A stretch of 64,000 nt of DNA from an uncultured Methanosarcinales archaeon (lineage in GTDB: Archaea; Nanobdellota; Nanobdellia; Woesearchaeales; UBA9642). Positions within the stretch are counted from its first letter, which is position 1. Each line of letters starts with the position of its first letter. Below, in pieces: positions 5,245 to 45,929 of the stretch. A model generated the notes under the pieces. It was given only the letters and a program-made list of their open reading frames with translations, was not told the origin of the DNA and did not search any database. The DNA lies in NCBI GenBank assembly GCA_964591655.1, contig CAZQDS010000001.1:7232-71231 (forward strand), in the 5' to 3' direction. A program made the position numbers and the translations under genes.

Positions 5245-5368
5245 CAATTAATCTATGAAACCATTCTTTAAAAGTAAAAAACCGTAACATATTTAAAGTA
5301 GTATTCATATGCGTTTGACATAATCTTATAATAGTAAAAAAAAGAGGGGGTGAGGACCGACATGTTTA

Positions 5369-6202
5369 TTGTCGGAGGGAAAAATGATAGTTAAAGACGA
5401 ATTTTTAAGCAAACTAAGAAGGCACTTCGGACTTAATCTTTACGAAGTCAAGATATGGACTGCGCTGCTTTCCAGAGGCATAAGCACTGCTGGAGAACTT
5501 TCTGACATAGCGAACGTCCCAAGATCAAGAAGCTACGATATTCTTGAATCGCTGGAGAAGAAAGGATTTGTAGTCATGAAGATAGGGAAGCCCATAAAGT
5601 ATATAGCGGTCTCCCCGAAAGAGATTGTTGACAGGGTAAAGAAGAACGTCCGTGTAGAATCGGAAGACAGGCTGAAGAGACTTGAAGAATTGAAAGGCAC
5701 AGACATCGTGGACGAGTTGAACAACTTGCACACGCAAGGCATAGAGCTTGTAGAGCCTACAGAATTGTCTGGATCGTTGAAGGGAAGGCACAACCTATAC
5801 AATCATATGGAGTTGACGATAAAGAATGCTGAAGAGACAGTCACGATAATGACTACGACACAAGGATTGTTGAGGAAGATCGAAGGCATGAAGCCCGTGT
5901 TTGAGCAGTTGAAGAAACGTGGCGTAAAGATAAGGATATGCGCACCTTTGACTAAAGAGGCAGTCCCTGCAATAAAGGATCTTGGCAATGTCGCTGAAGT
6001 GAGAGGCACCGATGCGAAGGCAAGATTTGTCATCGTCGACCGTAAAGAGCTGCTTTTCATGATAACAGACGACACACAGGTCCATCCGACATATGACGTC
6101 GGAATATGGGTGAACACCCCATTCTTTGCGAATGCTCTTGAAGAATTGTTCGAGCTTGCATGGAAAGAGATGAAGCCTGCGAAACAAGTCTTGAAATTAT
6201 AA
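5369..6202 (+). CDS. TrmB-family transcriptional regulator
   Basis: N-terminal wHTH 'LYEVKIWTALLSRGISTAGELSDIANVPRSRSYDILESLEKKGFV' is characteristic of TrmB. Paralogue of 27074..27877. Confidence 0.7.
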   Translation: MSEGKMIVKDEFLSKLRRHFGLNLYEVKIWTALLSRGISTAGELSDIANVPRSRSYDILESLEKKGFVVMKIGKPIKYIAVSPKEIVDRVKKNVRVESEDRLKRLEELKGTDIVDELNNLHTQGIELVEPTELSGSLKGRHNLYNHMELTIKNAEETVTIMTTTQGLLRKIEGMKPVFEQLKKRGVKIRICAPLTKEAVPAIKDLGNVAEVRGTDAKARFVIVDRKELLFMITDDTQVHPTYDVGIWVNTPFFANALEELFELAWKEMKPAKQVLKL

Positions 6203-10002: not shown

Positions 10003-10009
10003 TCCTAAA

Positions 10010-11974: not shown

Positions 11975-13369
11975 ATGAGCAAGACACATCTATTTATCGG
12001 ATTGATGATCATTCTTGTCATGGTCAGTGCGTGTGACGGACAGAAAACGACCACTAACTATCATCTGGGGACGCAAGGCATTGTGTTAGAGAAATTATCT
12101 AGCAACCCGGATATTGTTTATGAGGAAGAAACATTCGCATTCGGGATGATGCTGAAGAATCAGGGGGCTGCAGATGTCGAAGGAGGCGTCCTCATGGTGA
12201 ATTTCGATGATTTCTTCCTGGAATTAGACGATTATCAATCACAGAGCGGAAAGACACAGCAAGTGACCCTAGAAGGCAAAAGCATAGAGAGCCCTATGGG
12301 AGGGGCTGATTATCTTGAATGGGTATTCAAATCAAAAACCCTTGAGGTGATCAGGACAGGTGTCGAAAGCAAAGTGAATTTCAACGTGTGCTATAATTAT
12401 AATACTGATTTGACGACAGAAGTATGTCTCGATACACGAACAAGGACTTCAGACCAGAGGAGCTATGCCTGCAAAAGCAAGGACTACTCTAGCAATTCCG
12501 GGCAGGGGGCGCCCATATCCATAACAAAAATAGAGCCGGAGATGATGCTCGTAGGCAACAATGTCAGGCCATTATTCAGGATATACATAAAAAATGAAGG
12601 AGAAGGATATACTTTGAGCCCGGAAAAAAATCTCTGCACGAACCCTACAAAGAATGCCTCTGAACTTAACAAATTGAAAGTCAGTGCATGGATATCCGAC
12701 GATATGCCATTAGAATGCAACCCTGAAGAAGTGCGATTGGTGGACGGGGAGACTATCGCGAGATGTTATGTTGAAGATGGGGACTTGGAGGAATTCGGCA
12801 GGGAGACCGTCAATTATCTGACCATATTGCGTGTATTATTAGAATACGATTATGTGGATTCAGAAGTCATCAATCTCAAGATAAACAGGATCAATGAGAT
12901 AGACATAAAGAGTCCGAGTGTTTGCGGATATTACGAGATGCAACAGGGTGACCGATGCATACCGTTGTGTGATTTCTGCGTCAACAATCCTAATGACGAA
13001 GCATGCAAACGAAACATGAATGCATCGATCGGATTCGATTGGAACGATGCGTCTGATTTCAGATGCGCATGCAGCAAAGAAAAATGTTTGGCATTGAATA
13101 AGGAGGGGAAATGCATATTCGGATATTGTCCAGGAAGTAGCTATTGTTGCTCTACAGATGAATGCAGAGAAAAGGCCGATGGCGCCAAGTGCGGAGACAA
13201 TAATGTGTGCATCGCGAACATATGTATGCGAGGCGTGACTCAATGTGATTATAAGTTCGGCATGCAGAATTATACTTGCAACAGCAGGCCAGACTGCATC
13301 AACACCACAATAAAGACAGGATATTGCCCTGGCGATGAGAATAATGTTTGCTGCAAAACGACAAATTAG
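11975..13369 (+). CDS. lipoprotein, paralogue family member 1, with Cys-rich C-terminal extension
   Basis: Lipobox-like 'VMVSAC'; conserved core 'VCYNYNTDLTTEVCLD...SNSGQGAPISITKIEPE'. The C-terminal ~150 aa carry more than 25 Cys. Confidence 0.5.
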   Translation: MSKTHLFIGLMIILVMVSACDGQKTTTNYHLGTQGIVLEKLSSNPDIVYEEETFAFGMMLKNQGAADVEGGVLMVNFDDFFLELDDYQSQSGKTQQVTLEGKSIESPMGGADYLEWVFKSKTLEVIRTGVESKVNFNVCYNYNTDLTTEVCLDTRTRTSDQRSYACKSKDYSSNSGQGAPISITKIEPEMMLVGNNVRPLFRIYIKNEGEGYTLSPEKNLCTNPTKNASELNKLKVSAWISDDMPLECNPEEVRLVDGETIARCYVEDGDLEEFGRETVNYLTILRVLLEYDYVDSEVINLKINRINEIDIKSPSVCGYYEMQQGDRCIPLCDFCVNNPNDEACKRNMNASIGFDWNDASDFRCACSKEKCLALNKEGKCIFGYCPGSSYCCSTDECREKADGAKCGDNNVCIANICMRGVTQCDYKFGMQNYTCNSRPDCINTTIKTGYCPGDENNVCCKTTN

Positions 13370-13444
13370 ACGAAAAATATGCTTGAATACGCTAAACAAG
13401 ATTGATTTAAAAACAAAATCTTTATATACTAAAAACGTAAGGAA

Positions 13445-14671
13445 TTGATAAATATGTTTTTTATGAATAAGAGATGGGCTTTCGTATTGATGATTATAGC
13501 TGTATTAGTAATTTCTGGATGCGGCGTAGGTCCTAATCGGGGAACTAGTTATCAAAAAAAGTATTATCAAGGATATGATAGCCTGGACATAAAATTCTTG
13601 GATGAGAGCCCTCCGACAAGATTCTATTATGATTCTGAAGGGATAGACAATGAGATCCCTGTTGTCGTGGAAGTACGGAATAAGGGCGCATCAGATGCGT
13701 ATGGCGCAATATATATTCATGGATATGACCCTAAAATAGTGGAGGTTGCTGGTGGAGGGATACCTGGCCAGGGAAATATTAATTGGAACCCTGGGAGCGG
13801 AGTCCTTAACATCGGCGGCATATATATCGGACTTCCTGGCGGAGGAAACTATGGACAAGGTAATATCGGATTCATCTCTCCGAACGGAAATTATTATGGT
13901 GCGTCAGTATTTACTCAAAACAACAATTTTGTAGGGCTTAATTTGAATATAAATCTAAATAGCAACAGGATAGGTGCAAGGCTTGCAGATCCGGTATGGG
14001 GTGCGATGCAAGGGACATATGGATGGAATGCGCCTATCGCTTTAGAGGGAGACACTCCTGAAAGCCCTGGTGGAGGGATGGAAGTCTATGAATTCCCATC
14101 ATACATTTATTATCTTCCGGAATCGCTGGACCAGTTCAGGCAACCAATAATGGTCACCGCGTGTTATAGTTATGTCACTAGGGCGACAACGATGGTGTGT
14201 ATCGACCCTAAACCTAATAGCAATTCTAAAAAAGCATGCATCGCAAGAGATGTCAGCCATTCAGGAGGACAGGGCGCGCCGGTGGCAGTGACACGTGTAG
14301 AGCAGCAGGCAAGCTCTGGAAAAGTCGTATTTACAATAAGTGTCAAGCACAGTAAAAAGAATAGTCTTGATGAATTGTTCGACATTACACAATTATTCTA
14401 CAAGTGCAATCCGCATGCGGGAGCGATAGTCAAGCCTTCTGATAAGAATGTAGTGGACATATTATACGTAGAACTATCGGGAGAGGACATAACGATGAGC
14501 TGTTCTGGCGGCGGAAAGATAAGGCTAGATACGGCAGGTAATGGCCAATTCACATGTACTGCTTACATGAACCAGATGTCTGAGTCAGCATATGAAGCGC
14601 CCTTGCTTGTGGAGCTAGGATACGGTTATGGGAAAAATATTTATAAAGAGATAACTATTAAGAAGATATAA
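13445..14671 (+). CDS. lipoprotein, paralogue family member 2
   Basis: Lipobox 'VISGC'; core 'ACYSYVTRATTMVCID...HSGGQGAPVAVTRVEQQ'. Confidence 0.5.
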   Translation: MINMFFMNKRWAFVLMIIAVLVISGCGVGPNRGTSYQKKYYQGYDSLDIKFLDESPPTRFYYDSEGIDNEIPVVVEVRNKGASDAYGAIYIHGYDPKIVEVAGGGIPGQGNINWNPGSGVLNIGGIYIGLPGGGNYGQGNIGFISPNGNYYGASVFTQNNNFVGLNLNINLNSNRIGARLADPVWGAMQGTYGWNAPIALEGDTPESPGGGMEVYEFPSYIYYLPESLDQFRQPIMVTACYSYVTRATTMVCIDPKPNSNSKKACIARDVSHSGGQGAPVAVTRVEQQASSGKVVFTISVKHSKKNSLDELFDITQLFYKCNPHAGAIVKPSDKNVVDILYVELSGEDITMSCSGGGKIRLDTAGNGQFTCTAYMNQMSESAYEAPLLVELGYGYGKNIYKEITIKKI

Positions 14672-14684
14672 AGAAGGTGATCTT

Positions 14685-15674
14685 ATGAGATTAGCAAATG
14701 TATTGGCAATTTTGGCTGTTATGGCCGTTATGGTTTTGTCTGGATGTACAAACACAGACAATAGAGGCGGGAAAGCATTTATCGGCGGAACAGAAGGTTT
14801 AAGGACTTCATTTCTTGGCGGAAACCCTCCTGACGAGATATTCGATGGCGGACAATCGACTTTCGCAATCGTCGTGAAACTTGAGAATGTCGGTGAAGAT
14901 GACATGGCCGCTAATGAAGGATATGTGAAGATAAACGGTCTCGATCCTGGAACATATGGCATGGGCAATCCTAAAAAGATGATTGATGTGGCCATTCCTG
15001 GCGCAAAGAAGAATTTTGACGGTTCAGTCCTTAATGGAGGCATTGCGACTGTAGAATTCGGAGACTTATCATACGAGCCGGTAATACAAGGAAATCTTCA
15101 ACAGACAGTCTGGGCAGATATCTGTTACAAATATACTACGAGGACAACAACACAATTATGTATAAAGAAGGATCCACAATTATTGCTTGGAGACAAGAAG
15201 ATATGTGATGTTGAGGGCGAGAAGTATCCACAGAATGCCGGAGCACCTATCCAGATCACTTCATTGAAGGAGAGCTTTGCAGGAAACGGTAAAGTGGGCA
15301 TAAGCATGATCCTCAGCCACATGGGCACAGGAGATGCATTCTTCGATCCTAGAGTTAGTTTGAATGATAATGCATGTAATGATGTAGAGTCAAACACTAA
15401 CAGGGGAAGAGTACATGTAAAAGTTTTGCCTGTAAGGATTGGCGGCGCACAGATAACGCCAGTATGTACTGGATTGTCTGAGCCTTCAGGAACTAACGAG
15501 GGATATATCAGGTTATACAAGGACGGTTCTGGAAGAGAGCAGTTCAGCCTGTATTGTACAGTCGATGCATCATCAACAGACAGCATCTTTGAAGTCCCTA
15601 TTGAAGTAGAGACAGACTATCTATACTTGCAGCACTTAGAGAAAGAGATAACTATAAGGCACGTAATTGGCTGA
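14685..15674 (+). CDS. lipoprotein, paralogue family member 3
   Basis: Lipobox 'VLSGC'; core 'ICYKYTTRTTTQLCIK...QNAGAPIQITSLKES'. Confidence 0.5.
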   Translation: MRLANVLAILAVMAVMVLSGCTNTDNRGGKAFIGGTEGLRTSFLGGNPPDEIFDGGQSTFAIVVKLENVGEDDMAANEGYVKINGLDPGTYGMGNPKKMIDVAIPGAKKNFDGSVLNGGIATVEFGDLSYEPVIQGNLQQTVWADICYKYTTRTTTQLCIKKDPQLLLGDKKICDVEGEKYPQNAGAPIQITSLKESFAGNGKVGISMILSHMGTGDAFFDPRVSLNDNACNDVESNTNRGRVHVKVLPVRIGGAQITPVCTGLSEPSGTNEGYIRLYKDGSGREQFSLYCTVDASSTDSIFEVPIEVETDYLYLQHLEKEITIRHVIG

Positions 15675-15711
15675 GTATAGGATAATTTTTTATTATTTTT
15701 CTTTATTTTAG

Positions 15712-16335
15712 GTGAACAAAATGTGGCTACACAAACATGGTTGGAAGTATTATCATTCTGGTTTTGAAGAAGCATATTCTTTGTTGCAGAAATTCAGTCA
15801 GAATTTCGATAATCCTCAAGGCAGTCAAGACACAGATATTATAAAAAGCGTTGTTGCTCGAATGAAAAAACTGAATAAAGAGCTTCTAGAACATACCACG
15901 AACATAGCGCAAGAAATTCGGAAAGAGGATAATTTACTGAAGAAGATTGAGAATAATATATATGAGGTCCATCTCGTCAATAAGATTAAGAACAAGCAAC
16001 CTCTGCAAAGCTACGAGAACGAGCTCTCAAACGAATTCAAAATTATAGAAACGCTTTATTTACAATTGGAGAAAGACTGCGCAAATTCTTTAGCAATCTG
16101 TGATAAGACCAAGATTAATAAGGAATGGAATAGGGAATTGCAGGGTGAGGCCGCCACAATAATTAGCAGGCTCAAAAGCATAGAGAGCGCATCATTGAAA
16201 CTGGCAGAATACTTGAAAAAAGTGCTCCCGCAGCTTGATGAATATAAGGAATGGATCAAGAAACAGGAAGAAGGGACTGAATGGATGGAAAACTGTGTCA
16301 GGAGCTGGGTAAGAACTGCTGAAGACACAAAATAA
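15712..16335 (+). CDS. coiled-coil hypothetical protein
   Basis: 207 aa, heptad-rich, no TM segment; last gene of the same-strand block. Confidence 0.4.
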   Translation: MNKMWLHKHGWKYYHSGFEEAYSLLQKFSQNFDNPQGSQDTDIIKSVVARMKKLNKELLEHTTNIAQEIRKEDNLLKKIENNIYEVHLVNKIKNKQPLQSYENELSNEFKIIETLYLQLEKDCANSLAICDKTKINKEWNRELQGEAATIISRLKSIESASLKLAEYLKKVLPQLDEYKEWIKKQEEGTEWMENCVRSWVRTAEDTK

Positions 16336-16351: not shown

Positions 16352-17308
16352 TTATCTAGAAACTGTCAATATGAATCTTGCTATAAGGCTCTCTAATTGC
16401 AGGAATTCATCGCTTCCTTCTACCATCCTGAATTCTATCTCTGCACAGTCTTTCATCATCTCTAGACGTTTTTCTGGGGTGATGTTCAGTTTCCATACTT
16501 CCTTATGCAATTGCTTTATTATGTCGATGCCTGATAATCCGTAATTGAGCATTGTGTCTAATAGTTTTGATTTGGCCTTTTCGAAGTCTTTCTTTATCAC
16601 ATGGTCGAGTATCTGGCTTATCTCTTTCGGCCTGGCGAATCCTGCAACCTCAAACACGACGGCCTCAGTTATCTTATTGCTCAATACTGCGCATGCCTGC
16701 ATTATGTTCTCGAGCTTTCTCACATCGCCTTCTGAAACTTCAACAAGTGCGTCTTTTCCGCCTGCATCTATCGATAATTTCTCTCTTGTGGCGATTGTCT
16801 CTATTATCTCGAATATCTCCTCTTTTGATAATGGCTTGAACCTGAATACTGCGCATCTTGATTGTATCGGCTCTATGATTTTTGATGAGTAATTGCAGCT
16901 GAGTATGAATCTGCATGTCTGTGAATAGTTCTCCATTGTCCTCCTTAATGCCTGCTGTGCCTCTCTCGTCAATGCATCGCATTCATCTAGGTATATTATC
17001 TTGAACGGCACATCTCCAATGGATTTTGTCCTTGCGAATTCTTTTACTTTGACTCTTATTACATCTATTCCCCTTTCATCTGATGCGTTCAATTCTAAGA
17101 AGTTTTCATGCCAAGAATCTCCATATAATTGCTTAACCACAACTAATGCGAGCGTGGTCTTCCCTACGCCTGCAGGCCCTGCAAAGAGTACATGAGGCAT
17201 ATTCTTCTGGTCGACAAACCCCTTTATCCTCTTGACAATCTCTTTCTGCCCTTTCACTTCCTTAAACGTATCTGGCCTGTACTTTTCTGTCCATAATGAA
17301 TATTCCAT
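16352..17308 (-). CDS. rfcS: replication factor C small subunit
   Basis: 'WTEKYRPDTFKEVKGQKEIV...LFAGPAGVGKTT' (RFC box II/III, Walker A), 'YLDECDAL' (DEAD-like), SRC motif region; 318 aa with no intein. Confidence 0.9.
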   Translation of the reverse strand: MEYSLWTEKYRPDTFKEVKGQKEIVKRIKGFVDQKNMPHVLFAGPAGVGKTTLALVVVKQLYGDSWHENFLELNASDERGIDVIRVKVKEFARTKSIGDVPFKIIYLDECDALTREAQQALRRTMENYSQTCRFILSCNYSSKIIEPIQSRCAVFRFKPLSKEEIFEIIETIATREKLSIDAGGKDALVEVSEGDVRKLENIMQACAVLSNKITEAVVFEVAGFARPKEISQILDHVIKKDFEKAKSKLLDTMLNYGLSGIDIIKQLHKEVWKLNITPEKRLEMMKDCAEIEFRMVEGSDEFLQLESLIARFILTVSR

Positions 17309-17342: not shown

Positions 17343-19141
17343 TTACCTATCTCTCAGCATCGCTGTCAAGTAAGGCCATAATTCTGCTTCCGGATCAGAA
17401 TATTTTATCAATAGCACTTGGCTTCCTGAAGTGTTTGTGTACTCATAATATGCTCCGCCTATCGTCTTATTGACATATTCTATGTTGAAAGAGTTGTTCT
17501 GAGGAATATTCTGTCCTGTCATATTTAGATACATCAATGTCATCAATTCCTGAACTTGCTCATCATACTTCCTTTCTTCAACGCCATAAACTTTCAGGGT
17601 GTTATTGTTCAGCACATATAGTCTTTCATAATTTTTAGTCTGCGCAGCCAATCCTAAAGGCTCTGAAGGAGTATACCCGAATAGGTTTTGGAAGAATCCT
17701 ACTATTGCATTCCATATGTTGCTGAAGAATCCTCCTTCAATATTTAATTCTGAATCGCTCACCAGATAATAAAATGAGTCTAAATTGACATAAAGATATA
17801 GGGCGCCGTTGGTGGCACCATAATGCCCGCACTTCACAAATGTTGCTTCGGCATCATATCCGTCGCAGACACGATAACTTTCTCTCACAAACGAAGGGAC
17901 TATCAATTCTATGTCTAAAACATTTCCTGTCAAATCCGCGATATGTTTTTGGTACAATCTCCACATTATATCATCTGATCCATCTACATCTGTCGTCGGA
18001 TCTTCTGCATAGAATCCTGTGATTATCCTTTCTTCATCGCCCTCTTTTGATATCAGCACGCAACCGCCAGGGATGACTCCTGAATCTACGCCTATAAGGT
18101 TGTTGAATATTGCCCCAGTATCATCACAGAATATTATGTATGGTTTGTCTGCAGAGATGTTCTCTAAAACATTGGCTATTAGGAACGTCTTCGTCGTCCA
18201 TTCGCCGTTCATGCAATAATGGTTACCTTGATTCATCACGAAATTATTGTTTATGAACTGTCCATTCTTTATGCACGAGCTTCTCGAATTATTTAAAGAG
18301 TCGATGAATGCTTGTCTGTTTTCTGGAGTCGTTCCGAATGTGTTACTGACGAAACAATCACTGTCTCTTATGCAATATCCTGATTCTTCGAAGTTCCAAT
18401 CATACTTGACTTGTGCCTCTTCCCAATTGGCATAATTAGAATCATTCAATATGCACCTGTATCCTCTTGAAAGCCAATGCATCGTCGTATTTACATGAGT
18501 CCTATAATAAGAATTGATATCTATTATGCTCCATAGATTAGAATTATTAGAGATATACCATGGATCAGATGTCACACATTGGCTTCCATCCCAACAATAC
18601 TCTGCAGGACAACAAGCAGTAGTAAGGTTTATCGGAGGCTGCAACTGTTGTTGCGCATCAATCGGAGAGACTTCCTTGAACGATATATCATCGAATTTCG
18701 CTTCAGTACATCCGGCATCAACATGTATCCTCACACTTACGTTTTTGAAATATCCTTGTGATGCGTCTGGATCGCTGGCTGGAAGAAGAACGGTTTTTGA
18801 ACCGCTGGTAGTTAATCTGAATGGCACATCATTAAAACAACCAGTCTGTACCCAATTTGTTCTGCTTAAACAACGACCATCATTCAAATCAACCCTTACG
18901 ACACATCCTGCGGCGACAGTTATGTTCGCCCTCAAAGTATATTCTTTCCCTAACCTAATATCGAATGGATCTGAATAGATATCGATAGCTGTGCCCGAGG
19001 TCGTTGTGCCTACTAAAACCAATTCTTCATTCACAGACCATCCTGTGCTTGTTGTACGCCAGCCACTCATGTCTGCATAAGCGCTCGGCAATAAAACTAA
19101 TGAAATTAATGCAATAATCCATAATGTTGTATTCTTCATTT
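17343..19141 (-). CDS. large secreted Cys-rich protein
   Basis: Probable start at 'MKNTTLWIIALISLVLLPSAYA' (signal peptide), abutting the stop of the upstream giant gene. Many Cys ('TACCPAEYCWDGSQC'). Confidence 0.5.
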
Positions 19142-22100
19142 TAATTTCCGGTATTGTTTCCTTGTTGTGCACATACTGTTGGAGGACAATCGCCACCAAA
19201 CTTTCCATTCTTCAACAACTCAGTAGCAGGAGGAATAGATTTCAGGTGTAGTTCTGAAGGGGTCGCGGGATAATACGAGTTATCAACTATATCGTATGAT
19301 TGCCCTATTCCCGGAGTATATTGTCTCCATATTCCATTGAAGCAATAATAATCATCTCTGACTTCACATTGGTCATTTACATAAGTATTCACCAATTGTG
19401 GATAGCTTGTCTGATATGTTCCATCATAACTTACTCTTATAGAATAATATTTTCCTGATGGAACTTGACATCCAATAAAAGTGTTGTTGAAATATAATAA
19501 ATCAGAATAATTATAAGATTTTAATTCATCTAACATACTAAAAAATTTAGTGTTATCTTCATAATATCCGTGTGATTTCCAAACAGATTCTCCTTCAGGA
19601 ACACCTATTCCTGCAAAGCATCCGGCAGATTTATCCCATGTCGGAACAGAACTATCATTAAAGTATTCAGGATATTTAGTAGGGTCAGTAATATCCGTGT
19701 CATCTCCACAACAATGATGTCCTGTCCATATATATGGCCATTGTGCTTCACATGTTACGGCGTATCGCCCGTATCCTTCAAGCCATGCGTCATCACCGAT
19801 AAAGAATGTGTCTGTCGGATTGGTTATTTCTGAATCTAATTGAGGAATCCATGCAGCGAACCCTCCTGTACAATAATGGTTATCTGACCCGGCAGTGGCT
19901 TGTGTAGGGTCTATTGTTAAGTATATATTATCATATTTGAATTCTGCAATACTAGGGAATACGCTTCCATTTAAATCTACTTTTATTGTTTGTAGTATTT
20001 GCTGTTTATTTTCAGGTTTTATCCTTATCTTAATATGATGTGGAATCAATTCCTGATCTCCGTTTGTAGAATAAGTAGTTAATAAATCGTAAGGAACATC
20101 ATTTATATAAACTTTCCCTACCCTATTTTTACGATTGTATACTACGTCCATTTCTATATAATCAAAATAACTTAGGAAAAAATTCTTGTCATCAATATTT
20201 GTGAGAGAGTATCGCACAGATGTTTCAGTCGTAAACCTTTTTGCTAAATCATCTATTTTTGATATGCCTGATTTAAAACGATCATAGGATTTTATAATAT
20301 TATAATTGAGCCCTAATGAAAATATCCTGTTTTGTGTTATATCAACATATGGTGTTCCGCCAAACTGCTTAAAATTATTACAATCACCTACACAGCACTG
20401 TCCAAAATAATTATTTGACTCTGATGCAAAACAAGAGAAGGTGGCATTATTCTCGTTTTCAAAAAAAGAGAATGGGAAAAAAAGTTTGTCCATAAATACG
20501 CCGAAACAACAATATGTGTCATCATCAATCATCACATCTTGATCTGGCGGAGCACATATTAGGTTTTCTGTTTTTTCATAAGGCGTGCCTCCTGCCAGAG
20601 TACATTCATCCTCATTTGTTATTAGGGTTCCGAGCAGACATTCTTTATCTTCAGGATCTCCAAAACAGCATCTTTCTCCTTGAGGATACACTATTGCTCC
20701 GTTAACGCAAACATTACCTAAAGCGCAAGGAAGCCCTCTCCCAAAATCTTGCGCTGCACAAGATTTTCCTTCATCATAGGTAGATAAATCTGAACATAAT
20801 CTTTCATTTTGTTTACATATTTCCTTCAAAATCTCTTCTTCGCCAAATCCTCCCGCACCCAAACAAAAAGGATTGGTTGGGTATAACAAACAAAAATAAT
20901 TTTCTGTACTCGCATCAGAGAAACAGTAACATCCTTTTGCCGATTCTGGGTCTGCAAAAATATTTTTTGGTTCTCCATTCTCACAACAAGGATATTGTAT
21001 TGGCACATTATTACAATCATAGTGCGGATTTCCTGTTAATATTGTAGCTATATCACTACACTCCATGTTGTTTAAATTTCTATTAGGCGGTGCAGGGAAA
21101 GAATCATATTCTAACACGGGCAATCCTTTCAATCCAGTCGTTCCATCCGCATTACAATAATACCACTTGTCCGAATTTGATATATAATCGACTGTTTTTC
21201 CAGAAAAATTCAATGGAGTTATCAAGAAAGGTTTTTCTGGAGCAGATATCCACATCCATTTATCTTCTGTGCCACCATAAAAGTTTGTTTTATTGTTATA
21301 ACATAAATATTTATTATCAGGAGTTACATACCCATAGTCTCCGCCATTCAATGGAAAACTTATTCTAATATAATCTACCCATGATTCTTGCCCAGTATTA
21401 TGTGTGGTCACTCTCAAAATCCTTAATCGCACATCGTTGACTGTTATTGAACAAGATCTTTCAACACCCGGCGTTACTGGATGTAATATGACGCCATGCA
21501 TTCTGCCCGGATCGCCCACTACTCTAAGAGGGTCGCATCCCTCAACAGTGATGTCAGCGTTATTAATGAAAAATCCTGTTCCAGTATCATCCATAAAATA
21601 AACACGTAAGGTCGCGCCTGATTTTGAAGGGTCGTCATTTATCGTGAAAGTCGTCTTTTGATTATTATAAGAATAAGAAATATCTTTCATGGCACCACTA
21701 TTCGCGGTGATTAATTTCAAAAAGCCATCTTCAATAGTTGGAGAAGGATAGCCCGGTTGTGGTTGCCAACCATTACTATTATCATTGAAAGGTTCGAAAA
21801 ACAATTCGTCTTCGCTAAAGTCATCTCCGCAACAACCATCGGCACCATCATTTGCAGAAGGATTATACCAGGGCTCCATCTCTATAAGCGGTTTTATTGA
21901 GCAATTGACTCCTCCACTCGTACAATCTTCATCATCTGTGTCTGTTTTTCCATCAAAATCATTATCATATTCATCGTTACATCTTGTTTCCTTATCATAT
22001 TCGCAAACACCTATCTTGCCATTGAAATCAAGTGGTCCTGTACGGGTTTTACAATCTTCATCAAAGCAATCGACATTTGGTTCTCCGAAATTAGGATAAC

Positions 22101-22920
22101 TGTCATTTCTAGCTAAATATCCTCTTGTAGTAAAATACTTCGTATGATCATACCATGAAACATTTACACCATCATCGGCATAAGTCCAATCGACATCATT
22201 GTCACGAAAATCATTACAGATAGTCTCGGTTTCTGTAATATAAGAATTCCATACAGAAGTGTATCTACTAGGAGGCATTACTGCGGCAAACGGATAATGA
22301 TTTCTAACATCATTGCCGCTCGCATCTACAAGTCGTACACGCATGAAATCCTTGCCGCCGCTTTCATGATAAAGAATAACTATCTTATTCCAGCCGCGCG
22401 TAACAGGGATGGCGGCGCTACTCCAGCCCCCTCCAGAGGTAATTGTGAAAGTGTGGGTATATGTTTGAGTTTCTGTTGTACCGACAAGCTCAAAGACTGC
22501 GAGTGTAAATGTATCATCAACACGATAGTTTATATAAAAATCCTTGTTAGAGGCAGAATACACAACGAAATCTGCTCTGGCATAATACGGACCGGTACAA
22601 TCGCCATCATCATCAAAATCTTCTGCGCCCTGATCAGCCATACAAAATCCAGCAAAATAATTTTCGTCCCACCCACGATCACCAGAATCAGAAGCAAAAA
22701 TTTTACCTAATACGGGCTCTCCACGATTAGTCCAATCTGATGGGAAACTCGGGCAAGAAAAATCACAAGTATGATATAAAAACTGATGCTCTCCATATGG
22801 ATAATTATCCCAGAATGAATCATTATAGAAAACCGGATCAAATTCTGCTCTTACACTAACCGATAATAATACGAATAGAACAGATATCAATAACCCTTTC
22901 CAGATTAGTTTCATAAACAC
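19141..22920 (-). CDS. giant secreted Cys-rich protein (1259 aa) with thrombospondin-type-3-like Ca-binding motif
   Basis: Signal peptide 'MFMKLIWKGLLISVLFVLLSVSVRA'; 'CNDEYDNDFDGKTDTDDEDC' (DxDxDGxxDxDDxDC); repeated 'CCGDD' motifs; more than 80 Cys. Confidence 0.55.
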   Translation of the reverse strand: MFMKLIWKGLLISVLFVLLSVSVRAEFDPVFYNDSFWDNYPYGEHQFLYHTCDFSCPSFPSDWTNRGEPVLGKIFASDSGDRGWDENYFAGFCMADQGAEDFDDDGDCTGPYYARADFVVYSASNKDFYINYRVDDTFTLAVFELVGTTETQTYTHTFTITSGGGWSSAAIPVTRGWNKIVILYHESGGKDFMRVRLVDASGNDVRNHYPFAAVMPPSRYTSVWNSYITETETICNDFRDNDVDWTYADDGVNVSWYDHTKYFTTRGYLARNDSYPNFGEPNVDCFDEDCKTRTGPLDFNGKIGVCEYDKETRCNDEYDNDFDGKTDTDDEDCTSGGVNCSIKPLIEMEPWYNPSANDGADGCCGDDFSEDELFFEPFNDNSNGWQPQPGYPSPTIEDGFLKLITANSGAMKDISYSYNNQKTTFTINDDPSKSGATLRVYFMDDTGTGFFINNADITVEGCDPLRVVGDPGRMHGVILHPVTPGVERSCSITVNDVRLRILRVTTHNTGQESWVDYIRISFPLNGGDYGYVTPDNKYLCYNNKTNFYGGTEDKWMWISAPEKPFLITPLNFSGKTVDYISNSDKWYYCNADGTTGLKGLPVLEYDSFPAPPNRNLNNMECSDIATILTGNPHYDCNNVPIQYPCCENGEPKNIFADPESAKGCYCFSDASTENYFCLLYPTNPFCLGAGGFGEEEILKEICKQNERLCSDLSTYDEGKSCAAQDFGRGLPCALGNVCVNGAIVYPQGERCCFGDPEDKECLLGTLITNEDECTLAGGTPYEKTENLICAPPDQDVMIDDDTYCCFGVFMDKLFFPFSFFENENNATFSCFASESNNYFGQCCVGDCNNFKQFGGTPYVDITQNRIFSLGLNYNIIKSYDRFKSGISKIDDLAKRFTTETSVRYSLTNIDDKNFFLSYFDYIEMDVVYNRKNRVGKVYINDVPYDLLTTYSTNGDQELIPHHIKIRIKPENKQQILQTIKVDLNGSVFPSIAEFKYDNIYLTIDPTQATAGSDNHYCTGGFAAWIPQLDSEITNPTDTFFIGDDAWLEGYGRYAVTCEAQWPYIWTGHHCCGDDTDITDPTKYPEYFNDSSVPTWDKSAGCFAGIGVPEGESVWKSHGYYEDNTKFFSMLDELKSYNYSDLLYFNNTFIGCQVPSGKYYSIRVSYDGTYQTSYPQLVNTYVNDQCEVRDDYYCFNGIWRQYTPGIGQSYDIVDNSYYPATPSELHLKSIPPATELLKNGKFGGDCPPTVCAQQGNNTGN

Positions 22921-23052
22921 CCTCTTTCCATCATTTCTCGACTTTATGCTTTTTAAATATTACTATTTTGTGCGTATTCATGACTTCAATCCTGCTTAAA
23001 CCCTTATTAACCTTTATATATAAGCTAATCATACTGATATTGGTGAATAAAT

Positions 23053-25260
23053 ATGAATAAGGTTTTATCATTATATATTGTCGGTTTATTGTTATTTGGA
23101 GGAATCGTATTGCTTGCAGGGTGTACCCCACAGGCACCCGCAACAGCGACTCCAGAAGGAGGAACGTATCTCGCCAATAGTACAGATATGCCTACTGGTG
23201 AAGATGCTGCCGCATTGTCTGGCAATGTAATAAGATTTAATTCTACTGCAGAATTGGATGCATTCTTGAGAGAGAGACAATCCTCTTATCCGTCTGTTTA
23301 TCGTGGCGGTGTAATGATGGATGCGATGGTGTCTGCGACTGGCGGTGCCAAAAGCGCAGGTGCTCCTGTAGCTTCTGGTGCAGAAGAGTATTCGCAGACC
23401 AATGTTCAGGTTGAAGGTGTCGATGAAGCAGACTTCGTAAAGAATGATGATAAATATATTTATTTGGCTCAAGACAATAAGCTGATAATAGTGGATGCAT
23501 TTGATGAGAAGGAGATAGTTTCAGAGACTGATCTTCCTAAAAATGCTTATGCATCAAATCTTTTCCTTTATGGCGACAAGGTTGTTGTCCTTGCGCATTC
23601 TAGTGAGGAATCTTTCTATTTCAGGAAGTATGATATAATGCCGCAGCCTTCTTATGAGTCTGTGACTAAGGTGCTGATATATGATGTCTCTGACAGGAGC
23701 GACCCGGAATTGACCGAAGATTTCAAAGTCTCTGGAGATTATTTCCAGTCAAGGATGATCGATGATGTCGTTTATCTTGTCGCGGTCAAATATGCACAGT
23801 ATCCTGTCATGCCTCCTATAATATATGCTGAAAAGATGATCTCTCCGCCGATATATTATTTTGATAATGGTGAGGAACAATACAACTATAACACTATAGT
23901 CTCAATAAATGTCGATACGGAGAAGATTGTAGATTCTGAAGTGTATCTTTTAGGATACAGCAACACTTTGATGATGTCAGAAGATAACATATACATCGCA
24001 TACCAGAAACAGCCATATAGGTGCTGGGGATGGTATTGCAGAGACAATAGTTATGACAAAGAAAGGTTTACAGAAGTTGTCGTCCCATTATTAGAGGGAG
24101 AATTGAAGAGAGACATCCAGATAGTATTGAATAGCAAGGATTCTGATGATGAGCAATGGAATAAGATATCTGAGATATTGACTGGATTCTTTGAAAACAT
24201 AAGGGACGATGAGACTGCTCAAGACCAATATGACGAGATGCTTTCAGACATACAGGACGCATTAGATGATTATGATGCGAAACAATTGCTTGAGAACTCA
24301 AAGACAGTAATCCATAAGATTTCAGTAGATGATGGTGAATTAGACTATCAATCCAAAGGAGAGGTGGATGGAAGACTATTGAACCAATTCAGCCTTGATG
24401 AATATAAAGGATATCTAAGAGTTGCGACGACTGTCGACTTGTGGATGAATACTGGAAGGAAGACATACAATAATGTGTATGTCCTGGATAAAGATATGGA
24501 TGTTGTCGGTTCAGTCGAAGATATAGCGAAGAACGAGACAATATACTCTACAAGATTCATGGGCGACAAATTATATATGGTCACTTTCAGGCAGATCGAC
24601 CCGTTCTTCGTCATTGATTTATCAGACCCCGAGGATCCGGAGATACTTGGTAAATTGAAGATCCCCGGATATTCAAGTTACTTGCACCCATATAATGAGA
24701 ATTTCATAATAGGCGTAGGTAAAGAGACTGGGGAGAATCAATGGGGCGGTGTGTCGACAAAAGGCGTTAAATTATCATTGTTTGACGTTACAGACATGGA
24801 AAAACCTGAAGAAGTAGATAAGTATGAGATAGGGATGGAAGGGACAGACAGTCCGATACTTTATGAGCATAAGGCATTCCTTTTGTTCAACAACATATTA
24901 GTCATACCGATATCTGAAGTGACTTCAAGAGAGACAGGAAGATATGGCTATGATTATAAGTATTGGGATGGCGCATACGTGTTTGAAGTCTCAGAAGATG
25001 GGTTCGAATTGCTCGGGAAAGTAAAGCACGACTCGAGAAGCACATCGTATTATGCGTGGTGGGACAGGGCATCTGTAACGCGAAGCATAATAATGGATAA
25101 TGAATTGTTCACGATAAGCAACAAGTACATAAAAGTGAACGATCTTGACAATGAATTGGACTCATTAGGAAGCATAGAACTCCCATATGAGAACAACTAT
25201 TATCCTATGTATGCGACAGGCGGCGGAGTCGCTGTTTCAGAACCTGCAATAATGGAATAA
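23053..25260 (+). CDS. beta-propeller domain lipoprotein (Beta_propel-like family)
   Basis: Lipobox 'LLAGC'; 'SQTNVQVEGVDEADFVKNDDKYIYL' matches the hallmark of the archaeal/Firmicute secreted beta-propeller family. Confidence 0.55.
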   Translation: MNKVLSLYIVGLLLFGGIVLLAGCTPQAPATATPEGGTYLANSTDMPTGEDAAALSGNVIRFNSTAELDAFLRERQSSYPSVYRGGVMMDAMVSATGGAKSAGAPVASGAEEYSQTNVQVEGVDEADFVKNDDKYIYLAQDNKLIIVDAFDEKEIVSETDLPKNAYASNLFLYGDKVVVLAHSSEESFYFRKYDIMPQPSYESVTKVLIYDVSDRSDPELTEDFKVSGDYFQSRMIDDVVYLVAVKYAQYPVMPPIIYAEKMISPPIYYFDNGEEQYNYNTIVSINVDTEKIVDSEVYLLGYSNTLMMSEDNIYIAYQKQPYRCWGWYCRDNSYDKERFTEVVVPLLEGELKRDIQIVLNSKDSDDEQWNKISEILTGFFENIRDDETAQDQYDEMLSDIQDALDDYDAKQLLENSKTVIHKISVDDGELDYQSKGEVDGRLLNQFSLDEYKGYLRVATTVDLWMNTGRKTYNNVYVLDKDMDVVGSVEDIAKNETIYSTRFMGDKLYMVTFRQIDPFFVIDLSDPEDPEILGKLKIPGYSSYLHPYNENFIIGVGKETGENQWGGVSTKGVKLSLFDVTDMEKPEEVDKYEIGMEGTDSPILYEHKAFLLFNNILVIPISEVTSRETGRYGYDYKYWDGAYVFEVSEDGFELLGKVKHDSRSTSYYAWWDRASVTRSIIMDNELFTISNKYIKVNDLDNELDSLGSIELPYENNYYPMYATGGGVAVSEPAIME

Positions 25261-27073: not shown

Positions 27074-27877
27074 TTATTTCTTCTTCCACATCTGCTCGAA
27101 CATTTCTTTCAATGTGTTTGCGAAGTAAGGTGTCTTGACCCAGACTCCGACATCATAGCTCGGATGTACGTCCTTGTCATCTGTCAACATGAACAGTATA
27201 TGTTGATCATCGACAATGATGAATCTTGCATTCATGCTTGGAACGCTCTTCACTTCTGCTATCCCTTTCAATTCTGCAGAATATTTCTCTAGATCCTTAT
27301 CTTTTCCTTGTGGAACGAGAACTTTCACTGCGACGCCCTTATCTGAAAGCTTCTTCAGTGTCTTCTTCATGTGCTGTGTCTTTCTTGATAATCCTTCATG
27401 TGAAGTCATTATGCAGACAGTCTTCTCTGCACCTTTTATCATTGATTCCATATGATCATAGATGTTTGTCCTATCTTTTACCAAACCGACCATTTCTGTA
27501 GGTTCGACCATGTCTATGCCGTGTGTATGTAATTCGGTCAATTGGTTCAGAATTTGAGAATCCTTCAATTCATCCATCTGTAATTCTTTCTGGACCGATT
27601 CTTCTTTTATCCTTTTCTTTATGGTGTTTATTACTTCTGATGGAGGTATTGCCATATATTTTATAGGTTTCCCCAGTTTCATTATGATGAATCCTTTCTT
27701 CTCTAATGATTCTAGAACGTCATATGTCCTTGATCTTGGGACGTTGGAGATGTCGCTTAATTCTCCTGCTGAACTTACTCCTCTTGATAAGAGTGCTGCC
27801 CATATCTTTGCTTCATAAGAATTCAATCCGAAATCCTTCATCTTCTTTACTAATTCTGGTTGTACTAACATTTTCAT
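27074..27877 (-). CDS. TrmB-family transcriptional regulator (paralogue)
   Basis: 'SYEAKIWAALLSRGVSSAGELSDISNVPRSRTYDVLESLEKKGFI' is nearly identical in motif to 5369..6202. Confidence 0.7.
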   Translation of the reverse strand: MKMLVQPELVKKMKDFGLNSYEAKIWAALLSRGVSSAGELSDISNVPRSRTYDVLESLEKKGFIIMKLGKPIKYMAIPPSEVINTIKKRIKEESVQKELQMDELKDSQILNQLTELHTHGIDMVEPTEMVGLVKDRTNIYDHMESMIKGAEKTVCIMTSHEGLSRKTQHMKKTLKKLSDKGVAVKVLVPQGKDKDLEKYSAELKGIAEVKSVPSMNARFIIVDDQHILFMLTDDKDVHPSYDVGVWVKTPYFANTLKEMFEQMWKKK

Positions 27878-28096
27878 TTACCCCCAACGGTCATAATTAT
27901 AAAACAAATCACAGTCTGAAAAGACTTGTTGTCTAGGGGAAGTAAATACTCTTTATAAAGGTTATTATTTTGTTGCTATTCTTGAGTGAATACTATTTTG
28001 GATGTTGTTTTTAGATGTTGTTTTTAGTGCTTACATTTTTTATATTGATCCTAATATATCGGAATTTGACCAGTATTTGATGGAATCTTACAGACT

Positions 28097-28114
28097 CCTT
28101 TGTTTCTTCTGGAA
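28097..28114 (-). promoter_or_regulatory. ORB-like origin recognition box 1
   Basis: Exact 18-mer cctttgtttcttctggaa. Its reverse complement TTCCAGAAGAAACAAAGG resembles the archaeal mini-ORB core TTCCAGTGGAAAC. Confidence 0.55.
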
Positions 28115-28149
28115 ATTTGTTTTGAGTGTTTGAACGATTGTGCTTCTTT

Positions 28150-28260
28150 TTTCTCTTCTTTATTTATTTACTATATTGAAAATAATATATATAATATATA
28201 TAATATATATAATAAATAATAAATATAATAATATGTATAAAAGAAAACATATATTGAAAG
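28150..28260. promoter_or_regulatory. AT-rich duplex-unwinding-element candidate
   Basis: Run of almost pure A/T ('ataatatatataatatatataatatatataataaataataaatataataatatg') between the two ORB-like repeats. Confidence 0.5.
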
Positions 28261-28531
28261 AAATATTTATTGTTATTTTTACAGTTTTTGTGCTTAAATC
28301 ACGATAGTTGGCGTTCTTTGAGAGTGATGTGTGAGAAGAAATATCTATTCATTTTAAATATAAGTTTAAAACATCTTTAACAGATTCCGATAACATTTTC
28401 CATTTCTCCATAAGAAATCATGGGGTGGTATAGTGTTTCAAAACGATAATTCAGATAAGGTACATTCATTCATTTATATTCTAAGAATAGGTTTCTTTAA
28501 TATATTATAGAAATACAAAATATTTATATAA

Positions 28532-28549
28532 CCTTTGTTTCTTCTGGAA
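28532..28549 (-). promoter_or_regulatory. ORB-like origin recognition box 2 (overlapping the orc1/cdc6 promoter)
   Basis: Second exact copy of cctttgtttcttctggaa, about 12 bp upstream of a TATA-like 'tattataag' (28561..28569). An RBS-like 'gagggg' (28583..28588) precedes the ATG at 28594. Confidence 0.55.
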
Positions 28550-28593
28550 GTAGTTCAGTCTATTATAAGTTATATTCGTGCTGAGGGGTTTAA

Positions 28594-29799
28594 ATGGTTA
28601 TAAGTGATTTTTTAGAAAATTTCATAAAAAAAGAATCTCTGTTCAAGAACAAAGCAGTCCTGCAAAGCTCATATTTTCCAGAGGAAGTATTGCATAGGGA
28701 GGAACAGATAAATCAGATAGCGAAAATACTTGCGCCAGGTCTTAGGGCGGAAAGGCCATCAAATATATTCGCATACGGAAAGACCGGTACAGGGAAAACA
28801 CTCACGATACAATACACCCTAAAGGAGATAATCAAGATATCTCAGAGAGAGAACATCCCTCTGAAATATATCTATATCAACTGCAAACTGAAAAAAGTTG
28901 CAGATACAGAATACAGGCTTATAGCAGAAATAGCAAGACATCTAGGGAAGACCATTCCTCCGACAGGACTTCCTACTGATGAAGTCTACAACATATTCTA
29001 CAGGGCCATCAATCAAGAAAAGAAAGTGATAATAATAGTGCTAGATGAGATAGATCAATTGGTGAAGAAAATAGGTGATGAAGTTATATATAATCTCACG
29101 AGGATAAATACGGAGCTGAAAGAAAGCCAGCTAGCAATAATCGGCATAAGCAACGATGTAATGTTCGCTGACAATCTGGACCCGAGAGTAAAAAGCTCAC
29201 TTAGTGAAGAGGAGATAGTGTTCCCATCATATAATGCAATACAGATACAGGACATATTGAAGAAAAGGTGCAATGAGGCCGTAAAAGATGGGGTGATAGA
29301 GGACGGCGTGATAGCGAAGTGTGCAGCATACGCCGCCAGGGAGCACGGCGACGCGAGAAGGGCATTGGAGCTGATAAGGGTCGCAGTAGAGATCGCAGAA
29401 AGAAAAGGGATATCGAGCATAACATTGAAAGAGCTCGATGAGTCGGAAGAAAAGATAGAGAAAGACAGGGTCATAGATATAATAACGACCCAGCCGAAAC
29501 AATTCCAGCTCGTTCTTTATTCGATACTTATCATCGGGAACAGGAAAAAGAGCAACGACCCGATATTTACAGGAGACATATATCTGTTGTACAAGGACCT
29601 ATGCAACAAGACAAACCTTCGGCCGCTCACCCAAAGGAGGGTGTCTGATGTGATTTCAGAGTTTGACCTTTTAGGGATAATCAATGCCAAAGTAATAAGC
29701 AAGGGGAGATATGGGCGGACGAGAGAAGTGAACATAGTCACGAACGAAACCACCAACAACAAGATAATATCCTTGTTAGAAACATCATTGAACCTTTGA
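28594..29799 (+). CDS. cdc6: Orc1/Cdc6 replication initiator
   Basis: AAA+ Walker A 'FAYGKTGTGKTL', Walker B 'IIVLDEID', sensor regions and a C-terminal winged helix; 401 aa. Confidence 0.9.
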   Translation: MVISDFLENFIKKESLFKNKAVLQSSYFPEEVLHREEQINQIAKILAPGLRAERPSNIFAYGKTGTGKTLTIQYTLKEIIKISQRENIPLKYIYINCKLKKVADTEYRLIAEIARHLGKTIPPTGLPTDEVYNIFYRAINQEKKVIIIVLDEIDQLVKKIGDEVIYNLTRINTELKESQLAIIGISNDVMFADNLDPRVKSSLSEEEIVFPSYNAIQIQDILKKRCNEAVKDGVIEDGVIAKCAAYAAREHGDARRALELIRVAVEIAERKGISSITLKELDESEEKIEKDRVIDIITTQPKQFQLVLYSILIIGNRKKSNDPIFTGDIYLLYKDLCNKTNLRPLTQRRVSDVISEFDLLGIINAKVISKGRYGRTREVNIVTNETTNNKIISLLETSLNL

Positions 29800-45869: not shown

Positions 45870-45929
45870 GATTCAAGGGATATCATTCTGTATATAAACA
45901 TTTTTAAAATTAGCACACATTCTAGGAGT

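Follow-up and report, generated by a model that had tools for sequence, protein, structure and literature searches.

A giant secreted, disulfide-rich protein family of Woesearchaeota with a member divided into two chains, a candidate surface adhesin

Woesearchaeota, tiny and probably symbiotic archaea, count among the most widespread of the uncultivated archaeal lineages, and a life attached to other cells is assumed for them. To our knowledge, no attachment protein is known for the lineage. Giant secreted proteins occur elsewhere in the DPANN archaea, the SPEARE proteins of nanohaloarchaea being an example. The present study concerns two adjacent genes, referred to here as A and B, in a stretch of 64,000 nucleotides (hereafter the window; contig CAZQDS010000001.1, positions 7,232 to 71,231) that belongs to the core chromosome of a DPANN archaeon of the Woesearchaeota and also encodes RFC, Cdc6/Orc1, both subunits of PolD, MCM and TBP. 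Most of the lineage-specific protein families in DPANN archaea are extracellular or membrane proteins to which no function has been assigned (Castelle et al. 2021, PMC8204110). The murein-transglycosylase-like proteins of Woesearchaeota and Pacearchaeota (PMC8204110) are, like A and B, giant secreted DPANN proteins, with a proposed role in host attachment, and most such families are unannotated; in A and B, however, no transglycosylase, protease or nuclease domains were found, and their sequence family is unrelated.

The fungal PA14 adhesins (Flo1, Epa, Cea1) resemble the A/B pair in being secreted, in having a distal lectin-type β-sandwich (tentative in A, from local Foldseek matches) and Ca-type acidic loops, and in the fast diversification of the binding end. 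In contrast to them, A and B are archaeal rather than eukaryotic, have no PF07691 match and only low model confidence, lack a Ser/Thr stalk and a GPI or cell-wall anchor, and consist in bulk of a Cys-rich core without a counterpart in the fungal proteins. The carbohydrate-binding modules (CBMs) of the CBM4, CBM16 and CBM22 families (PF02018-type, including those of phage tail fibres) have the fold that is confidently predicted for residues 23-160 of B, and the fused relative of A and B opens this domain with the typical 'NLIKNxF...GW'; unlike these modules, B of the window has neither a match to the hidden Markov model (HMM) nor an attached catalytic domain, and its first strand is encoded on A. 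With the NF033662 proteins, the teneurin C-rich region and the thrombospondin type-3 (TSP3) repeats, A shares a Cys-flanked D-x-D-x-D-G-x-x-D-x-x-D loop, but in one clear copy and one degenerate upstream copy, with no tandem array and with sub-threshold scores.

Comparison with relatives identifies A and B as the two halves of one giant predicted protein that is a single chain elsewhere in the family, a stronger link than the original prediction of co-transcribable secreted Cys-rich partners. A local HMM of the B family matches the C-terminal part of single chains with the A core, including P0049 (E-value 1.7e-146), P0162, P0005, P0167, P0165, P0164, P0128 and others, and many representatives of 1550-2000 amino acids (aa) finish with the C-terminal signature of B, W.YLT..LR, while 35 representatives of about 1100-1300 aa stop exactly like A, at '...LK..PPG.ELIKNG.F..'. 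P0049 (1879 aa, locus L043) fills the slot of A and B in the gene order TrmB, small open reading frame (ORF), TraB, Beta_propel(-), the gene itself and RFC; it reads 'PNLIKNDFVLGTGWSLLD' across the boundary at which A ends with 'ELLKNGKFGGDCPPTVC...' and mature B begins with 'DMSGWRTTSTGW'. Since the distant members are single chains, the fission is the derived state, and the ancestral form can be reconstructed as one polypeptide of about 1500-2000 aa. In the clade of the window, the gene was split at the start (first strand) of a CBM-like jelly-roll domain, and the downstream half gained its own predicted signal peptide after the fission. The split form recurs in at least nine genomes at species level, in all of which B has a signal peptide, and the B orthologues often carry an N-terminal Cys-rich extension that is missing from B of the window.

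The ORFs of the original prediction are present, namely those of 19141-22920 (1259 aa) and 17343-19208 (a 621-aa reading) on the minus strand and that of 735 aa at 23053-25260 on the plus strand, although the boundaries of A and B required revision. The most likely start of A is the ATG at 22914, which gives 1257 aa, as in the database protein P0001. For B, the 621-aa reading starts too far upstream, because every orthologue starts at an MK... signal peptide (alignment A2), and B therefore has 598 aa. The two genes are adjacent and co-transcribable, as expected of the proposed operon, but they do not share a stop and start at 19141; the TAA of A occupies 19143-19141 and the ATG of B lies at 19139, forming a TAA-A-ATG junction without overlap. 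Both chains carry the predicted Sec-type signal peptides (MKLIWKGLLISVLFVLLSVSVRA/E in A and MKNTTLWIIALISLVLLPSAYA/D in B), and no transmembrane (TM) segment was found in either of them besides these N-terminal signal sequences.

The cysteine counts suggest that the two chains stay joined. An odd number of Cys was found in 21 of the 25 split-type A chains (counts 38-63) and in all 14 full-length B chains (counts 17-51), a set that leaves out three even-Cys B sequences which are N-terminally truncated or aberrant. The single-chain relatives have an even number in 74 of 91 cases (Fisher p = 2.6e-9), and where the HMM boundaries of a fused protein are clean, the A part and the B part each have an odd number in 12 of 14 cases. 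The simplest reading of this parity is that essentially every Cys takes part in a disulfide and that Cys are therefore gained and lost in pairs. We infer, with good support, that all Cys are paired and that one conserved disulfide connects A with B, which would be inter-chain in the split form. The unpaired Cys of A is not one of those in the 'DCPPTVC' tail, as split A chains without these two Cys are still odd. The counts, drawn from related sequences, are not fully independent; yet the sequences of the representatives are at least 50% different, and their Cys numbers cover a wide range.

A and B belong to an undescribed family of giant, predicted secreted and disulfide-rich proteins that extends across the metagenome-assembled genomes (MAGs) of Woesearchaeota and Nanoarchaeota. 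A word-indexed homologue search, which yielded 7-11 relatives of A and 17 of B, badly underestimated the family. When the A core (alignment A5) served as the profile for an exhaustive search of 1.84 billion cluster representatives, 441 of these were identified at E<=1e-3 and 153 at E<=1e-30, most of them with 1000-2700 aa. Residues 285-1216 of A match positions 1-905 of the family profile and B matches the B HMM, the two profiles being fused or adjacent in relatives. The named relatives of the window genes come from Candidatus Woesearchaeota, Nanoarchaeota or Nanoarchaeia MAGs, and the family occurs about once per genome (33 loci from about 31 MAGs), with a single copy in the window. Sequence and profile searches of Pfam, NCBIfam, PHROGs and PDB gave nothing for A or B except two weak matches of the acidic loop. 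Pfam searches of isolated segments (the PA14-like region, the acidic region, the insertion, the B jelly roll and a chimera of the A tail with B) gave nothing meaningful at E<=10, and in PDB, searched with both families and with the propeller, the C-rich motif of teneurin-4 (E-value 0.14) and a spurious cystatin match were the only results. Among 26 diverse members scanned with Pfam, no model fell on the core, and accessory InlB B-repeat, PKD and CBM_4_9 domains (CBM_4_9 in two of the 26) were found occasionally. No description of the family was found in the literature searched for CCGDD, for Cys-rich or surface proteins of Woesearchaeota or DPANN archaea, and for PF09826.

Within the locus, A and B appear from their sequences to evolve fastest. 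In the closest genome (L001), the identity to the window is 93% for RFC, 94% for TrmB, 90% for TraB, 85% for the propeller and 73-91% for the proteins of an operon at 8.3-16.3 kb, as against 49% for A (over 78% of its length) and 54% for B; for the two closest genomes together, the ranges are 71-91% for the operon proteins and about 45-55% for A and B. In L013, L014 and L016, RFC is 76-82% identical to that of the window, and A and B about 30-32%. The first ~330 aa of A cannot be aligned between orthologues, and whole modules have been gained or lost, such as the insertion at residues 368-523 of A, which is common only to P0003 and missing from the other orthologues, and the N-terminal Cys-rich extension of B. 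A conserved core with a shuffled distal end is typical of surface molecules under diversifying selection.

The distal part of A is the least conserved. Foldseek searches with the AlphaFold2 (AF2) model of A gave high-probability matches only locally, at residues ~110-215, to the PA14 adhesin domains Cea1A, Epa9A and Flo1 (prob 0.97-1.0, E-values 3e-3 to 4e-2); the PF07691 (PA14) model had no match at E<=10 in A or in the N-terminal segments of four orthologues. The acidic Ca-type motif DNDFDGKTDTDDEDC was correctly noted in the original prediction and is present once (aa 319 of the 1259-aa reading), but its assignment to the TSP3 family did not hold. PF02412 (TSP_3) and PF18884 (TSP3_bac) had no match at E<=0.1 in the whole of A or at E<=10 in the isolated segment, and there is no tandem array; the DxDxDG pattern occurs twice, at aa 99 and 317 (DNDFDGKTD at aa 317 of the 1257-aa chain). 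The best matches of the loop are a single acidic double-disulfide repeat of NF033662 (acid_disulf_rpt; E-value 0.0019, 17.9 bits against a cutoff of 41 that presumes several repeats) and the Ca-binding C-rich region of teneurin-4 (7plp). As the motif is conserved across the family (alignments A1 and A3), it is not a chance match, and it is best described as a conserved DxDxDG Ca-type loop rather than a TSP3 repeat. The recurrence claimed for 'CCGDD' is borne out by two copies (aa 363 and 1070 of the 1259-aa reading), whereas 'GCC' is present only once, inside the first CCGDD. The chain has 51 Cys and A and B together 68, fewer than the more than 80 previously attributed to the large protein. 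Six vicinal Cys-Cys pairs are present in A (aa 361, 643, 749, 802, 840 and 1068) and one in B (aa 176), most of them invariant across the family and two of them in a repeated G-CC-GDD context. A C-terminal sub-module of ~80 aa in the A core ('LLY..F..C...YYC.NG.W') is tandemly repeated in P0089.

In B, the jelly roll has its best PDB matches by Foldseek in CBM4, CBM16, CBM22 and CBM61 (E-values 3e-5 to 1e-3, prob 1.0, target-normalised template-modelling score 0.43-0.55) and also matches CBM-like modules of phage tail fibres in BFVD. The predicted structure is thus a β jelly roll, as in a CBM_4_9-type module, while the PF02018 (CBM_4_9) HMM matched neither the B domain nor the chimera of the A tail with B nor the domain of the fused P0049; this domain may bind sugars. 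Searches of PDB and BFVD with the B model gave jelly-roll matches only and none for the B core, which carries 'TTACCPxxYCWDGSxC'. The C-terminus of B, LWPYLTAMLRDR, is invariant, and the same signature closes many single-chain relatives. B has 17 Cys. The abundance of N-x-S/T sequons that had been suggested for both chains was seen in B (13 against 7.1±2.4 in shuffled sequences, p ~0.015) but not in A (12 against 11.8).

On these grounds, A and B would be exported by the Sec pathway and would reassemble outside the cell, one inter-chain disulfide, the equivalent of an intra-chain bridge in the single-chain relatives, holding A to B, and the C-terminal 'LLKNGxF' strand of A may complement the jelly roll of B in trans. 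A hypervariable distal part, made up of the N-terminal β-sandwich of A, the acidic Ca-type loops and optional inserted β modules, would sit on a conserved Cys-knotted core; less certain than the rejoining of the chains is that the assembled protein would bind sugars on a partner cell. In the reading favoured here, with close to an even chance of being right, a DPANN episymbiont would carry the protein on its cell surface as a glycan-binding adhesin or for the recognition of its host. It is favoured because of the fast evolution of A and B, the lectin-like folds and the accessory InlB B-repeat, PKD and CBM_4_9 domains of some relatives. The adhesin or host-interaction role of the original prediction is therefore plausible, given the CBM4/16/22-like jelly roll of B, the weak PA14-like matches of A, the acidic Ca-type loop and the fast evolution, and the enzymatic domains named there as a ground for abandoning it were not detected in either chain (searches of Pfam, NCBIfam, PHROGs and PDB; no HExxH or GxSxG).

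Several observations weigh against this reading. No sequence-level match to lectin or adhesin families was found for A or B, and the PA14-like assignment of residues ~110-215 of A, itself tentative, depends on a region of low confidence (predicted local distance difference test, pLDDT, only 50-65). The AF2 model of A (aa 24-1223, from an 11-sequence alignment) has a pLDDT of 47 and is too poor to use, and that of B is weak (mean pLDDT 66.6), being confident only for residues 1-135 (pLDDT ~85). Modules of the CBM and PA14 types are frequent on secreted glycosidases as well. Neither in A nor in B was a membrane or cell-wall anchor found that would account for retention at the surface; the Cys parity, besides resting on related sequences, does not pinpoint the bridging Cys; and the family has the look of a conserved core gene in roughly single copy, which would suit a structural role in the envelope too.

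Such a role, in which A and B would form the main structural protein of the envelope, an S-layer-like coat made of one large and one small subunit like SlaA and SlaB, and not a specific adhesin, is considered unlikely. In its favour, the tandem genes encode a large and a smaller secreted protein that presumably assemble outside the cell, as in SlaA/SlaB of the Sulfolobales; the family, widespread in the lineage, occurs about once per genome at a conserved position in the core chromosome, and has N-glycosylation sequons enriched in B, and surface-exposed S-layer proteins evolve fast too. However, B lacks the C-terminal TM segment or other anchor of such a coat, a TM segment at the C-terminus is almost absent from the family, single chains prevail among the relatives, no similarity to SlaA/SlaB was seen in PDB sequence searches, and the lectin-like modules and the shuffling of N-terminal domains point to ligand binding. 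The known archaeal S-layer proteins, moreover, do not typically contain about 4% Cys with vicinal CC pairs.

The CBM4/16/22-like and PA14-like modules could instead target a substrate, with the Cys-rich core as an unrecognised catalytic domain of a secreted enzyme, either a new polysaccharide-degrading or a cell-wall-remodelling one. Modules of these types typically go with glycosidases, the core has invariant acidic residues (e.g. E1083, D1087, D923 and D995), and large lytic proteins of extracellular location have been reported from Woesearchaeota (PMC8204110). The failure of A and B to match any enzyme family in Pfam, NCBIfam, PHROGs or PDB, the absence of HExxH and GxSxG motifs, and conserved positions that are mainly Cys, Trp, Gly and Asp and look structural make the enzyme a decidedly improbable explanation.

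In the original prediction, A, B and the propeller lipoprotein were plausible functional partners of the operon at 8.3-16.3 kb, which has six genes; together they would form one multi-protein surface apparatus. All of these are secreted, lipobox or membrane proteins without known domains, they are co-localised in five related genomes, and the first operon protein has a class-III (pilin-like) signal sequence. The partnership was nevertheless not upheld: the operon adjoins the A/B block only in the closer genomes and is missing from its side in L013, L014, L016 and L043, where class-III-signal pilin-like genes follow RFC instead; none of the distant family members has it nearby; RFC, a housekeeping gene, lies in between; and the slower divergence of its proteins gives no sign of co-evolution with A and B. 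A joint apparatus is accordingly given very little probability.

Influenza HA1-HA2 is a two-chain, disulfide-linked viral glycoprotein with a variable binding chain and a conserved, helix-bearing second chain, and it is cited here as an analogy only. By this analogy, A and B might be a disulfide-linked two-chain machine similar to viral receptor-binding and fusion glycoproteins, in which the hypervariable A would recognise host glycans and the conserved B, through its invariant amphipathic aromatic helix FFSNIWNAIVGFFQNLFGY and the conserved C-terminus, would engage or perturb the host membrane and so start the cytoplasmic bridges between DPANN cells and their hosts. The variable A and the more conserved B with its amphipathic/hydrophobic helix, presumably disulfide-joined, are similar to the viral chains; unlike these, A and B come from two genes and not from proteolysis, lack a TM anchor, and show no evidence of heptad repeats and no detected fold similarity. 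The idea is highly speculative and its chances are slim; if it is true, the pair would be the founding member of a new archaeal family for cell-cell contact or fusion with a new fold. Hardly credible at all is that a pseudogenising frameshift or an assembly error divided a single gene, as the single 1879-aa ORF in the orthologous slot of L043 could suggest, because the division is seen in the nine or more genomes and 35 cluster representatives mentioned above and B is in every case equipped with a signal peptide and often with a Cys-rich extension at its N-terminus, besides which the TAA-A-ATG junction is clean and the Cys parity is kept in each chain.

The features of the locus are listed in Table 1. 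The propeller protein was rightly predicted as a β-propeller lipoprotein, as PF09826 matches over the full model, 'QTNVQVEGVDEADFVK' lies at aa 115, and a lipobox (...GGIVLLAG/C, aa 17-24) after a hydrophobic segment suggests lipidation; the protein also has a low-complexity tether. It is adjacent and divergent to A in all split-clade loci and in L043, and it is a speculation that it could be a clade-specific docking partner for A/B. The intergenic region between the two genes may serve as a promoter for both sides, judging from its TATA-like boxes. The TraB-family ORF was also confirmed, with a PF01963 match above the cutoff; it scores just under the cutoff of TIGR00261 (175.8 against 178.35 bits), matching only model positions 3-221 of 380, and no signal peptide or TM segment was found in it. 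This protein is a short form without the C-terminal membrane half of the canonical TraB and is 72-90% identical in all related loci. TraB, RFC and the operon are neighbours by chromosome synteny only, and TraB is probably functionally unrelated to A/B.

Table 1. Features of the A/B locus, with positions in the window
Feature	Position	Strand	Remarks
Gene A	19141..22914	-	ORF of 1257 aa + stop; N-terminal chain; family profile match
A signal peptide MKLIWKGLLISVLFVLLSVSVRA, aa 1-23	22846..22914	-	Hydrophobic N-terminus; kept in orthologues
A variable N-terminal β-sandwich, aa ~110-215, tentatively PA14-like	22270..22587	-	AF2 strands; local Foldseek matches
A acidic Cys-flanked DxDxDG loop (C-NDEYDNDFDGKTDTDDED-C), aa 307-333	21916..21996	-	NF033662 and teneurin-4 matches; conserved in family
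A first NDG.DGCCGDD motif, aa 355-367	21814..21852	-	Invariant G357, D359, C362, G363, D364, D365 (alignment A1)
A β-rich insertion of ~155 aa, aa 368-523	21346..21813	-	Alignment A1; per-block identity; low-confidence AF2 strands
A conserved Cys-rich family core, aa 524-1220	19255..21345	-	Invariant Cys, Trp and Asp columns in 26 diverse members
A core β-sandwich segment, aa ~850-1010	within 19255..21345	-	
A second motif, WTGhhCCGDDT, aa 1061-1073	19696-19734	-	
A tail 'LKSIPPATELLKNGKFGGDCPPTVC...', aa 1221-1257	19144..19254	-	Stub of jelly-roll first strand continued in B; 35 representatives end here; P0049 reads through
Gene B	17343..19139	-	598 aa + stop; C-terminal chain; ATG 1 nt past TAA of A
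B signal peptide, aa 1-22	19074..19139	-	In all full-length B orthologues; absent at equivalent position of fused P0049
B CBM-like β jelly roll, aa 23-160	18660..19073	-	AF2 and Foldseek
B conserved core, aa 161-598	17346..18659	-	Alignments A2 and A4; AF2 confidence moderate only
B conserved amphipathic helix FFSNIWNAIVGFFQNLFGY, aa 471-489	17673-17729	-	
Divergent intergenic region A/propeller	22915..23052	.	138 bp; AT-rich TATA-like boxes on both sides; sequence read directly
β-propeller protein, 735 aa, lipobox	23053..25260	+	PF09826, E-value 1.4e-152, 509.5 bits (cutoff 22.4), model positions 1-494 of 495
TraB/PrgY/GumN-family protein, 230 aa	25320..26012	-	PF01963, E-value 6e-24, 85.7 bits (cutoff 26.8)
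RFC small subunit	16352-17308		Between the 8.3-16.3 kb operon and A/B

The block TrmB-TraB-propeller(-)-A-B-RFC is kept in L001-L005, L010-L014 and L016, and also in L043 with A and B fused. The distant family members have neither the propeller nor the operon genes within 10 kb, and TraB is mostly absent from their loci, although in three (L021, L024 and L040) it lies ~8-9 kb upstream of the A-like gene, within a wider conserved region. In 22 of the distant loci, the fused gene lies between a gene of ~186 aa and a Memo gene (PF01875), with MCM and TBP nearby. A 213-aa ORF of the window (45813-46454, plus strand) is 40% identical to the ~186-aa gene directly upstream of the fused A-B homologue in L006, and from this similarity it probably marks the ancestral position from which A/B moved. 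A and B would thus have moved within a conserved replication-gene neighbourhood, and their current neighbours are mostly housekeeping genes, Pelota, FmrO and TrmB being others of this type. A mobile-element or viral origin of the locus is ruled out by the conserved core-chromosome context (RFC, Cdc6, PolD and MCM) and the absence of PHROG matches. In L006-L009 and L017-L042, two more giant ORFs, of ~1300 aa (with a pilin-like N-terminus) and ~1530 aa, follow in 13-15 loci, giving a conserved cluster of giant, predicted secreted proteins; none of these is present in the window.

The six-gene operon (8320-16335, plus strand) is conserved in five related genomes, has no matches in Pfam, NCBIfam or PHROGs, and may be an uncharacterised envelope or pilus-like system of its own. 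The pilin-like signal of its first protein (MRKGQSSSSAAAFIAIMTV...) precedes a Cys-rich acidic middle; the second has about five TM segments behind a coiled-coil N-terminus; the third to fifth are lipobox paralogues with a common 'SGGQGAP(V/I)' motif; and the sixth is a helical cytoplasmic protein with a faint FlaX-like match. Two TrmB-family regulators are encoded in the window, at 5369-6202 (plus strand) and 27074-27877 (minus strand), with a second TrmB HMM match (E-value 2e-125) at 5354-6199. The 716-bp intergenic region at 27878-28593, upstream of cdc6/orc1 (28594-29799), is strongly AT-rich at ~28160-28250 and has an exact 18-nt direct repeat, CCTTTGTTTCTTCTGGAA, at 28097 and 28532, the reverse complement of which, TTCCAGAAGAAACAAAGG, we take to resemble the archaeal origin recognition box (ORB) elements; the region may be a replication origin. 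An Rfam scan of the window found no RNA genes, and a scan with bacterial promoter and terminator models, which are uninformative for an archaeon, gave counts equal to those in shuffled sequences. Several sequences with a Woesearchaeota-type gene are labelled 'uncultured Methanosarcinales archaeon' (L010, CAZJFT010000005.1; L015, L018, L021 and others, from binchicken assemblies) or 'Bdellovibrio sp.' (L019, RFKI01000151.1), L010 having the same synteny as the window and an RFC 93% identical to its own; these taxonomic labels seem to be either generic or mistaken.

The gene fission inside a domain and the bioinformatic evidence for an inter-chain disulfide go beyond what had been predicted for this DNA, and A and B would provide a natural example of a split protein that reassembles outside the cell. 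The locus suggests a family of giant surface proteins throughout the lineage, for which there is neither a Pfam or NCBIfam model nor a description in the literature searched, and which evolves much faster than its neighbours, as would be expected of a molecule that faces hosts or phages. If the adhesin role proves true, the variable N-terminal modules could be used to predict the host range of these archaea from metagenomes.

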